IMG/VR virus record: IMGVR_UViG_3300046170_000505 | Length of the DNA stretch: 64,000 bases | Direction: 5' to 3' (one strand) | DNA from: a virus | Part shown: positions 46,801 through 49,800 of the stretch, in pieces | Layout of the letters: each line of letters starts with the position of its first letter | Numbering within the stretch: position 1 is the stretch's first letter | Notes under the pieces: model-generated | The model's database searches: none | What the model was told of the DNA's origin: nothing | The model's input: only the letters and a program-made list of their open reading frames with translations | Translations under genes and position numbers: made by a program

Positions 46801-49800
46801 GGGTATGGAAGCTTAGGGCGTCTAGAATATTTTCATACAGAAAGTTTTGGCGCTCCTACTATGAAACATATAGAGCAGCGAAACAAACAAGCCCACAATA
46901 TAAAAGCAAATTTAGGCCTAATCCCTAATTTTGCAGACTACAGAACTCGTGAACAAAAAATAACAGATTATTTAAATGATCCAGCTAATGACAAAGTAAA
47001 GTTTAAAAGGCCTAAAATGCCAGCAAATATAACTCCTACGCAAATAAGTATGGCGATGAATGTCCCAGTAGGAGGTAATGTTACTAAAGAATATTCTGAC
47101 AATGAAATTAAAAAAGCAATATCAGAAACAATACAGAAAAGAAAAGATTTACAACTGGAGGGTTTTGAAAATTTAAAAAACGTAGACATAGATTCTGTTC
47201 TTAAAAAATACAAAGAATCAACAAAAGATGGGGATTTCTATGGCGATAAAGATTTAAGCTATTCTTCTGGTCTCGTTCCTAACTTCGTTGATAAAGTTCA
47301 AAACGGTGCAATCTACTACAGTAAGCCTCACAATAAGATCGTGAGGGTAACTCGCGTAGATAATGACAAGAAAATCGCAAGGATCAAACATCACGACATG
47401 GAAAAATACAAAGATGAGGAAGTATTTTTCAAAGATCTTGAAGCAGTTTCAGCTGAACAGGCAAAAGAATACTTCCAGAAAAAGAGTTCTGGCCTTGTTC
47501 CTAACTTTGCACAACAAGCAGGCAATACTTTGTTGATGGAGCCAAGTAAATTTTTTACTTATGCCAACTCAAGCGATGTGGCTAAAGCTCTAGGGAAAGG
47601 AGTAAATTACAGAGAAATTCAAGATAAGATGGACTCACAGGAACCTGTATCGATAAAAGCTAGCCTGCTGGATATCATAACTTCGTCTGACAAAAATAAA
47701 ACAAAACCCACTGGAAAAGAAGCATTACATGGCACCTTTAACTCTTTAGCGTCAAAAGGGATTTCTTATATAGAAAGAGATTTTATTTTCAGGCAACTTA
47801 AAAGAAGAGGAGCTAGACAAAAAAAAGGAGAATCAGATCCAGATTTTAACGAAAGAAAAGTCACTGCTCAATTAAATGCGGAACAAGATATAAGAGAAAC
47901 AGCTGGATCAACTTACACAAAATATTTATCTACATATAACCCTGAAACAAAAAAGGGCGACCCTTCTTATCCCATCGATCATATAGCAGAAGGTCTTGAG
48001 TTTTCTTCAGGAGAAACTAAAAGCGGAGAATTTATCGCCGCAAATTTGATCTCTAAAAGTTTGCGAATGGCTTCTGATAGAGAATTAACCTCATGGTTAG
48101 AATCTCAAGGCGTTAAAGACAAAGGTCTTGATGAAAAAAACTTAAAAAGAGCTCAAAACCTAGCCTCTCAACTAGGAATAAAAGGAACTAAAAAAGATGA
48201 ATCTGAAGAACCCACTTTTGATCAAATAGACGCTGACGCTTGGGGAATGAATAAGGGGTTGGTGCCTAATTTTGCCGATCTAAGCAAATCAGAGAGGCTC
48301 AAGATGATGAAAAGTACATTAAGTTTCCAGGACGAATACGAAGATTTAGCAAAAATGGGCAGTCCGCTAGCAAAGTGGGCCTTAAAGACCGTCAAGGACA
48401 AAGAATTCAAGATGATTGGCAATGGAATGGAATCGTGGGCCATAGGAAACGAGGAGGTTGTTTATAAGCTGCCAAGGCCAATGATAGATAGCTTTAGTAA
48501 AACAGGCGATCTAGAACTAAAAAGATGGAGAAAGCAAATGAAAGTGATGGCTCAACCTTCTCTTCAGTATAAAGTGAGTCCAGAAAATAAAGCTTGGAAT
48601 CTTGTGCCGAATTCAAATATAGCAAAAAGAGCGGAAAGAATAAGGTCTCAACTTGATGAGCTTGGTATTAATTCACTGTTTTTACCAAAAACAGAGGTGT
48701 TAAAAGTAGCTGGGCAAGACGAGTTTATAACTTCCCAGGAAAGGGTTAAGGGTAGTACTTTTTTTAATCTTCAGAACGAAATTGTTAAAAACAAAAACAA
48801 TAAAACCGACTTTAATCTAGACGGTTATAAGATTGTCGAGCATTTAATGGAAAACATTGGCGAATCCACGATGATAACGGATGTACATTCTGGTAATTTT
48901 ATAGCTGAGGCAAGCAAGAAGAAACAACTCTTAAATACGGTTAATCAATTTGCCCCTGTCGGATCAAAAGAATCTAAGCCGTTGAGTAGATTGGGATTGA
49001 GAAGTTTGCCTAATGACAGTATGGCTGCGATTGATTTTTCTTCAGGCCTAATTCCGAACTTTGCTGATTTATACAAGCCATACATGAATAAAGGGGGAAA
49101 GGCTATAGGTATGGAAAATTATTTCTACAGTTCTAATAATCAGGAGGACGCACTAAATTACATAAAGTCCAACAAAAATTTGAATATAAAAACTGGAAGC
49201 TCTGAGCTCAGGAAGTTTAATTTTCCTCCGAGAGTTTGGGAAATGTTAACATCTAATAATCCTCAGGATATCGAACCTCAGATGAATGTACTGCCAATAG
49301 GAACCAGGACCCCTATTGGCAAGGGCGACCCTTATAGGGATACAAGTCTCGGAAAAGGGATGAGCGAGCAGGAAGATTTTTATGCCATAGCTTTAAAGAA
49401 TACTCTTGGGATAAGGCCTCCGTTCTTTGAAAAAACAGATTCCTGGAGAAACGGTGAGACTTATTCTACCTTAATGACTAACTCGTCGCAATTCAGGGAG
49501 ATGTATAATTTAAACAGGTTGGATGGGAAAAATGTTATTCCTAATTTTGTTAAATATGACAAATCGCGTGGAGGCTCAGGGGCATGGGGAGCTATACCTA
49601 ATAATCGAGAAGGAAAATATGGAGGTTTTATTCCAAACTATAAAAAACTATATCAAGCATATATCGGTGACGATAAAAACTATAGAGCCAACAGGACTAG
49701 TAGCGCTTGGTATTTTGATAGTCAAAAAGGAACAGATGGAATATTAGATGATTGGCGAGGCGTGGTATCTAGCGGAGCCGTGAGCAAAGGCATTGGACAT

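Follow-up and report, generated by a model that had tools for sequence, protein, structure and literature searches.

Can a phage tail carry a protein kinase into the host? This question is raised by a 257-amino-acid segment of a giant tail tape measure protein (TMP) encoded in IMG/VR virus record IMGVR_UViG_3300046170_000505, of which a stretch of 64,000 nucleotides (hereafter the window) was analyzed. A protein-kinase-like module had been proposed at this place from the DNA letters alone (hereafter the original prediction). The results described here point to an exchangeable TMP cassette that is most likely, with a probability of roughly 55%, a very divergent protein-kinase-like domain without a C-lobe, nearest to the Kinase-PolyVal family (PF18762). 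The carrier, the cassette, its borders and its downstream neighbor are located as follows.

43819..58974, + strand: open reading frame (ORF) of the TMP, 5,051 amino acids (aa), a single open frame enclosing the kinase-like cassette
48256..48276, + strand: linker 5, GLVPNFA (TMP aa 1480–1486), left border of the cassette
48274..49044, + strand: kinase-like cassette, 257 aa (TMP aa 1486–1742), open on translation
49045..49065, + strand: linker 6, GLIPNFA (TMP aa 1743–1749), right border of the cassette
49066..49623, + strand: downstream cassette, function not recognised, which travels with the kinase-like cassette; G+C content at third codon positions (GC3) 0.389; 88% identical to its counterpart on IMG/VR contig L001

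The carrier is a genuine tape measure protein. In a Pfam search, TMP aa 117–316 matched PF10145 (PhageMin_Tail; E 1.5e-24, 87.4 bits), more than ten PHROG tape-measure families matched the protein, the best being phrog_4211 (E 4.5e-47), and genes for minor tail proteins lie 3′ of the ORF. Between aa 647 and 2763, the protein contains 11 copies of a linker peptide of the form G-[LFIVMT]-x-P-N-[FY], mostly GL(V/I)PNFA, which divide it into modules of 74–386 residues; the peptide is conserved and its codons are variable. A related TMP on contig L001 also carries the kinase-like and downstream cassettes next to each other, 86–88% identical to those of the window. Other cassettes common to both proteins are 27–61% identical (one 77%) and occur in a different order, and the two-cassette pair itself stands after the KKLYQAY cassette in L001 and before it in the window. 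Since the pair is this similar, adjacent and relocated, the kinase-like cassette appears to belong to a recently exchanged two-cassette unit. Codon usage of both members is foreign, with GC3 values of 0.380 for the kinase-like cassette and 0.389 for the downstream one, against 0.21–0.26 for most other cassettes, the rod and the TMP core, the backbone value being about 0.22. GC3 peaks, at 0.405, in a 74-residue cassette between linkers 3 and 4 (47269–47490). Cassette content varies between close relatives, as L001 has cassettes without counterpart in the TMP of the window; one of them (L001:4250-4700), absent from the window TMP, begins with KTFYDFDETL, a haloacid-dehalogenase-like DxDxT signature. 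Two further kinds of left neighbor of the kinase-like cassette were found in relatives P0005 and P0006. The downstream cassette (49066–49623) matched no recognisable family.

Relatives of the cassette were searched for widely. A filter-free phmmer search of 1.84 billion representative proteins returned four true relatives, each a piece of a giant TMP in which this linker peptide recurs (a fifth match, a spurious repeat protein, was discarded), and a word-indexed search for longer proteins gave no further ones. Additional copies in IMG/VR and JGI metagenomes were only those 86–88% identical, no cassette match was obtained by tblastn and blastn in 50,697 phage records, even at E 10, and 185,579 species genomes yielded none either. 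The cassette is confined to a handful of related giant TMPs. Comparison with the 86–88% identical copies gave ratios of nonsynonymous to synonymous substitution rates (dN/dS) of 0.24–0.26, which marks the cassette as a coding unit kept by purifying selection. The distant relative P0006, in which the gene call ends inside the cassette, is 56% identical.

The motifs named in the original prediction (IGNGMES, VVYK, SQERVKG in FITSQERVKG, DVHSGN in TDVHSGNF, and AIDF) were all recovered inside the TMP at the coordinates claimed. Together with two further elements, they are listed below; in this numbering, cassette residues K65, D203, N208, N221 and D254 correspond to TMP residues K1550, D1688, N1693, N1706 and D1739, respectively.

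48415..48435, + strand: IGNGMES, candidate Gly-rich loop; G49, G51, E53 and S54 invariant in five relatives
48457..48468, + strand: VVYK, with candidate ATP-binding (strand 3) lysine K65 (TMP K1550), invariant also in P0006
48580..48645, + strand: PENKAWNLVPNSNIAKRAERIR, the most conserved block, candidate helix C region (E104 or E121)
48724..48753, + strand: FITSQERVKG, putative last N-lobe strand and hinge, with family-specific Ser-Gln (S154-Q155)
48877..48900, + strand: TDVHSGNF, candidate catalytic loop (D203, H205, N208)
48925..48942, + strand: QLLNTV, with Asn 221 at the canonical spacing of the DFG Asp (N208 + 13)
49027..49038, + strand: AIDF, the DFG equivalent of the original prediction (D254), three residues before linker 6

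Conservation is pronounced in the N-terminal half, where the blocks GSPLAKWAL, IG-x-G-x-ESWAIGN, VYKLPRP, RWR and PE..WNLVP-x-S..AKRAE.IR are invariant among relatives. PENKAWNLVPNSNIAKRAERIR alone contains 17 positions invariant in five aligned relatives, P0006 included, and neither K65 nor the N-lobe motifs vary even at 56% identity. The pattern D-x-H-x-x-N of the candidate catalytic loop occurs once in the 5,051 residues of the TMP, and 49 residues separate its Asn from linker 6. The His two residues before the catalytic Asp of kinases is lacking (the cassette reads I-T-D), and the Gly-rich loop takes the form G-x-G-x-x-S.

Three independent, weaker approaches converged on the same family, and a kinase-like domain is the best available reading of the cassette. 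The first was a feature search of the ESM Atlas. Its first match, with a score of 0.95, was a viral cluster with the automatic name 'Protein kinase domain-containing protein'; according to the tool's own figures, a first match of at least 0.95 arises about once per 100 shuffled proteins. The nearest Pfam-annotated clusters were Kinase-PolyVal and Phage_T7_kinase, at 0.93 each, with 11% of the members of the latter cluster belonging to that family.

The second approach was profile-profile comparison with Kinase-PolyVal, a kinase domain of the polyvalent proteins of phages and conjugative elements (Iyer, Burroughs, Anand, de Souza, Aravind 2017, PMC5512222) that Pfam includes in its PKinase clan (PMC9758233). 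Members were gathered by running the PF18762 model against 401 + 87 genomes and using the one weak match obtained, L004, as the seed of two database searches, from which comparator alignments of 11 (A2) and 56 (A4) sequences were made. Conserved blocks of the family are GGEHxVxF, WxKxTxPG, LPSEYLxR, (V/I)ISQPxIxG, FDAHPxNF and PIDxI. In hhalign, the alignment of the cassette family scored 22.6 against A2 (P 0.018), a score reached by 2 of 150 column shuffles, and 26.5 against the 56 relatives of A4 (P 0.004). The match to A2 was a single stretch of 56 columns that placed FITSQERVKG on (V/I)ISQPxIxG and TDVHSGNF on FDAHPxNF. For calibration, Kinase-PolyVal was compared in the same set-up with 30 APH domains (24.6, P 0.0099) and with 30 Hanks kinases (19.8, P 0.069), both comparisons matching in the catalytic loop and in the DFG-type motif (PID or DFG); APH against Pkinase scored 69.8. 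Because the scores of the cassette are of the magnitude of those of Kinase-PolyVal with its clan relatives, the cassette appears, at the level of profiles, as close to Kinase-PolyVal as Kinase-PolyVal is to APH and Pkinase. S154-Q155 fell in the SQ column of the family in four alignments made by hhalign and MAFFT, and MAFFT with short-form members placed G51, E53-S54, K65, S154-Q155, D203 and N208 on the family G, E-H, K, SQ, D and N. Global hhalign of the cassette against the family was meaningless and was set aside, and a pattern scan on the merged alignment was discarded as the sequences were too divergent.

The third approach was a block test, for which six blocks of eight residues were picked by information content alone from the 56 Kinase-PolyVal relatives. 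The ordered six-block score was 39.5 bits in the cassette, compared with 6.2 ± 5.6 bits in shuffled sequences, none of 2,000 reaching 39.5, and at most 19.1 bits in 67 natural windows of the same TMP. TDVHSGNF contributed 19.9 bits against the family block FDAHPRNF. When the 64-kb window was scanned in six frames (128,000 positions), neither the catalytic-loop block nor the G-E-H block had a match of at least 12 bits outside the cassette; inside it they scored 19.9 and 12.2 bits, respectively, in correct order. The spacing from the Gln to the catalytic Asp is 48 in the cassette and 49 in Kinase-PolyVal. Combined, these comparisons suggest that a Gly-rich loop with a Glu, a lysine (K1550), a Ser-Gln hinge and a D-x-H-x-x-N loop (D1688, N1693) follow one another in the order of the family. 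A kinase-like origin of the cassette is judged likely on this basis. That it is an active protein kinase is a tentative proposal, with somewhat less than an even chance.

Several results weigh against these proposals. No kinase family, including PF18762, APH, PF27024 and PF00069, was matched by the cassette in a Pfam search at E up to 10, nor was there any match among PDB sequences; PHROGs and NCBIfam searches gave nothing relevant. The gathering score of PF18762 (27 bits) was not reached, the record of the relative with 86% identity contained no candidate, and our own hidden Markov model (HMM), built from 11 Kinase-PolyVal members, gave the cassette −0.3 bits. AlphaFold2 models had a predicted local distance difference test score (pLDDT) of 39.5 with the five-sequence family alignment and of 37.4 when this was merged with short Kinase-PolyVal members. 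Of the comparisons with protein-kinase-like families suggested in the original prediction, that by HMM was thus negative and that by fold spoke neither for nor against a kinase; the kinase-like module is partly supported and stands as the best available reading on the strength of sequence statistics and a language-model neighbor. Probabilities given by hhalign for the cassette against Kinase-PolyVal were only 2.5–8%, and the signal comes mainly from the SQ strand and the catalytic loop, most of it from one motif of eight residues. A Hanks-type kinase (PF00069) was rejected, with no Pfam match and an hhalign score of 13.2 (P 0.42) against 30 bacterial Pkinase domains. A literature search on the family name returned no report of an active Kinase-PolyVal domain, and delivery, folding after ejection and linker cleavage are all putative.

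Some of these figures can be set beside those of the family itself. The PF18762 model reached E 0.001 for only 30 of the 56 bona fide relatives, with a best score of 36.6 bits; Kinase-PolyVal had no tblastn match in cultured phages, and its profile had no PDB match. The low-confidence AlphaFold2 models contained a helix at aa 115–129 and a three-strand start (aa 46–67) resembling strands 1–3. A truncated C-lobe, regarded in the original prediction as grounds for abandoning a kinase, does not argue against one here, because loss of the whole C-terminal subdomain defines Kinase-PolyVal (PMC5512222).

Support from the N-lobe is thin, as its alignments (Gly-rich loop, strand 2, Lys) conflict between methods. 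Alignment A6 paired G51-x-E53-S54 with the family G-x-E-H, whereas the block test preferred GNEE at aa 58–61; the Glu near strand 2 was E53 in one alignment (MAFFT with short-form members) and E60 in the block test and two other alignments. K65 was placed on the family Lys in two alignments with Kinase-PolyVal and K87 took its place in two others, and with full-length members both MAFFT and low-stringency hhalign put ESWA on the N-terminal extension of the family and RWRK on its Lys. K87 (in RWRK) was rejected as the ATP-binding Lys, being Ala in P0006 while K65 is invariant.

A different difficulty concerns the metal-binding Asp. AIDF, proposed originally as the equivalent of DFG, is indeed present, but its Asp lies 46 residues after N208 and 33 beyond Asn 221, compared with 12 residues from the Asn to the PID Asp in the family, and it scored 0.6 bits against the family PID block. 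In canonical kinases, about 13 residues separate the catalytic Asn from the DFG Asp. Asn 221 sits at this canonical position and AIDF is for this reason doubtful as the DFG equivalent. Moreover, Asn 221 fell on the invariant PID Asp of the family both in MAFFT (A6) and in hhalign with low mact, and the sequence following it, NQFAPVGSK, resembles the tail NIVPPGASK of one Kinase-PolyVal subgroup. Either a 33-residue insert would separate strand 7 from the metal-binding Asp, or an Asn would occupy this site and the cassette would possibly be a pseudokinase; an insert between the conserved His and Asp is mentioned for Kinase-PolyVal (PMC5512222).

The second of these options would make the cassette a kinase-fold pseudokinase or ATP-binding module, which could bind a host protein or nucleotide, or act as scaffold or partner of the downstream cassette. 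We regard this as unlikely. The Asn in the DFG-Asp column, found in two independent alignments and at N+13, together with the poor PID score of AIDF, is what such a module would present, and the cassette always adjoins the same downstream cassette; yet Lys, catalytic Asp and catalytic Asn are all retained under purifying selection, no relative diverges at these sites in a telling way, and the Asp of I-D-F is available 33 residues on, in a region where the family is described as accommodating an insert.

The proposal that the cassette is unrelated to kinases, that is, a passenger or structural module of another fold with motif matches due to chance, has an equally low standing. It accounts for the lack of HMM, PDB or structure-prediction support, for hhalign probabilities below 10%, for the inconsistent N-lobe alignments and for the count of shared Atlas features, 168, slightly below the 170 that true family matches typically show. 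It is harder to reconcile with the convergence of three independent approaches on one family, with two best blocks that are unique to the cassette among all six-frame positions of the window, with an SQ-to-Asp spacing one residue short of that of the family, and with a similarity equal to that of accepted clan members. A kinase-fold enzyme with a non-protein substrate, APH- or choline-kinase-like and acting for instance on a nucleotide used in host signalling, a precursor of the envelope or a compound resembling an antibiotic, is very improbable: APH-like small-molecule kinases do have a loop of this type, D-x-H-x-x-N lacking the HRD His, and the best local hhalign match to APH was the catalytic loop in register, but that match was not significant (score 15.6, P 0.15), no APH (PF01636) Pfam match was obtained, so that APH was rejected as the family, and the describers of the closest family class it as Ser/Thr/Tyr-type.

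A divergent kinase-like domain is thus retained as the preferred reading. Since the cassette fails the Pfam model and is without the invariant Asp at the aligned position, it is filed not as a member of Kinase-PolyVal but as a divergent relative with probably the same mode of action. If so, the TMP, with its cassettes largely unfolded, would fill the tail tube and be expelled into the cell envelope or cytoplasm before the DNA, as we infer from established phage biology. Once ejected, the cassette would fold, with or without cleavage of the linkers, bind ATP through the Gly-rich loop and K1550, and transfer phosphate by means of D1688 and N1693, with a metal site at D1739 or N1706. Host or phage targets would be phosphorylated before any phage gene expression, an early cytoplasmic action suggested by analogy with a TMP-fused RNA polymerase (PMC10770324). 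Neither HExxH nor HxxEH motifs occur in the TMP (43819–58974), and a zincin peptidase, invoked for the release of domains from polyvalent proteins (PMC5512222), is consequently not evident. The phage may carry a ready-made host-modifying enzyme in its tail. A bolder and improbable extension would have the cassette represent a new, very narrow branch of kinases without C-lobe, in which the metal-binding Asp shifted to the extreme C-terminus, beside the linker, paired in the two-cassette unit with a downstream substrate-targeting or regulatory partner and traded horizontally among giant TMPs as a tail-delivered module for host takeover or anti-defence.

Regarding genomic context, the window contains a structural module with the large terminase subunit at 15903–17777 and a cement-protein-like gene, and it also encodes a tail-fibre gene with an endosialidase-chaperone domain. 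Directly 5′ of the TMP, two genes (35319–42638, 2,439 aa, and 42635–43762, 375 aa) encode proteins with divergent InlB B-repeat (Flg_new_2) domains, which take the usual location of tail assembly chaperone genes upstream of the TMP. In the C-terminal part of the TMP itself (57300–58700), a short motif is repeated, PAMLTAGEYVVP and then PSMLTRGEGFIP, each after a Gly-rich stretch. Upstream of the structural module, at 10993–13401, one gene encodes a PhoH-like ATPase and another weakly matches sigma-70 region 2. A 77% identical copy of the PhoH gene (10993–11715) was found in L003, a contig of 210,818 bp (JAYQMT010000004.1) from a Cellvibrionales metagenome-assembled genome, possibly a jumbo phage or prophage related to this one and a pointer to its host; that Cellvibrionales genome gave no match to the kinase-like cassette. 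Relative P0006 is encoded on a 192-kb contig. The phage of the window probably belongs to the jumbo phages and infects bacteria of marine or aquatic habitats.

Among known systems, Kinase-PolyVal is the most similar to the cassette, being its best profile-profile match among the three kinase-like families tested. According to its description, the family has lost the whole C-terminal subdomain and keeps the active-site residues; a Glu precedes strand 2, and the last N-lobe strand contains a Gln (PMC5512222). The cassette would share with it the absence of a C-lobe, a Glu near the Gly-rich loop, an invariant Lys, a Ser-Gln strand and a D-x-H-x-x-N loop without the HRD His, as well as its location inside a phage protein of very large size and many domains, whose entry into the host together with the DNA is predicted. 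The carrier is distinct, a tape measure protein, a term absent from PMC5512222, and it lacks an accompanying zincin peptidase motif. By contrast to the family, the cassette also has an Asn at the invariant PID Asp, does not reach the Pfam model, and contains a helix-rich segment before the catalytic loop in place of the family's segment; identity is ~14%, and the Lys-to-Gln spacing is 90 in the cassette and 71 in the family.

Three further systems resemble the cassette in part. Kinase gp0.7 of phage T7 (PF27024) is reportedly produced after infection and not carried in the virion. Host proteins are modified by this phage kinase at an early stage of infection (PMC5512222), much as is proposed here for the cassette. 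The parallel drawn in the original prediction holds as a functional analogy but not as one of descent, for the T7-kinase family gave no match at E up to 10 and was rejected. The Alt ADP-ribosyltransferase of phage T4, which is said to be carried in the head and not in the tail tube, differs from the cassette in fold and chemistry. It is similar in that the virion carries it and delivers it along with the DNA to modify the host, and it is cited as the model for polyvalent-protein effectors (PMC5512222). Sle1-type effectors of actinobacterial contractile injection systems are TMP-related and likewise present a TMP-like carrier with an exchangeable module, packed in a tail-like tube and ejected; they belong to a bacterial nanomachine and have one C-terminal module, with no array and, in the abstract, no kinase reported (Nagakubo et al. 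2026, PMC13277306).

An experimental precedent for the proposed delivery route is gp96 of Thermus phage P23-45, in which a TMP of 5,002 aa and a virion RNA polymerase form one protein (Chaban et al. 2024, PMC10770324); it, too, is a giant TMP with an enzyme that acts in the cytoplasm and works before phage gene expression. It bears a single N-terminal polymerase and no internal array bounded by linkers, and its activity is proven, whereas the cassette is known from sequence. Given this fusion and the kinase domains described in PMC5512222 for phage proteins whose injection with the DNA is predicted, to call a virion-delivered kinase unusual, as was done originally, was an overstatement. An active kinase in the cassette would offer a minimal scaffold of ~250 residues with an unusual catalytic-site layout for structural study, and would be direct evidence for the TMP as an injectable carrier of interchangeable host-modifying enzymes that act before phage transcription, extending both the computational concept of polyvalent proteins and the single proven case of the P23-45 TMP-fused RNA polymerase.

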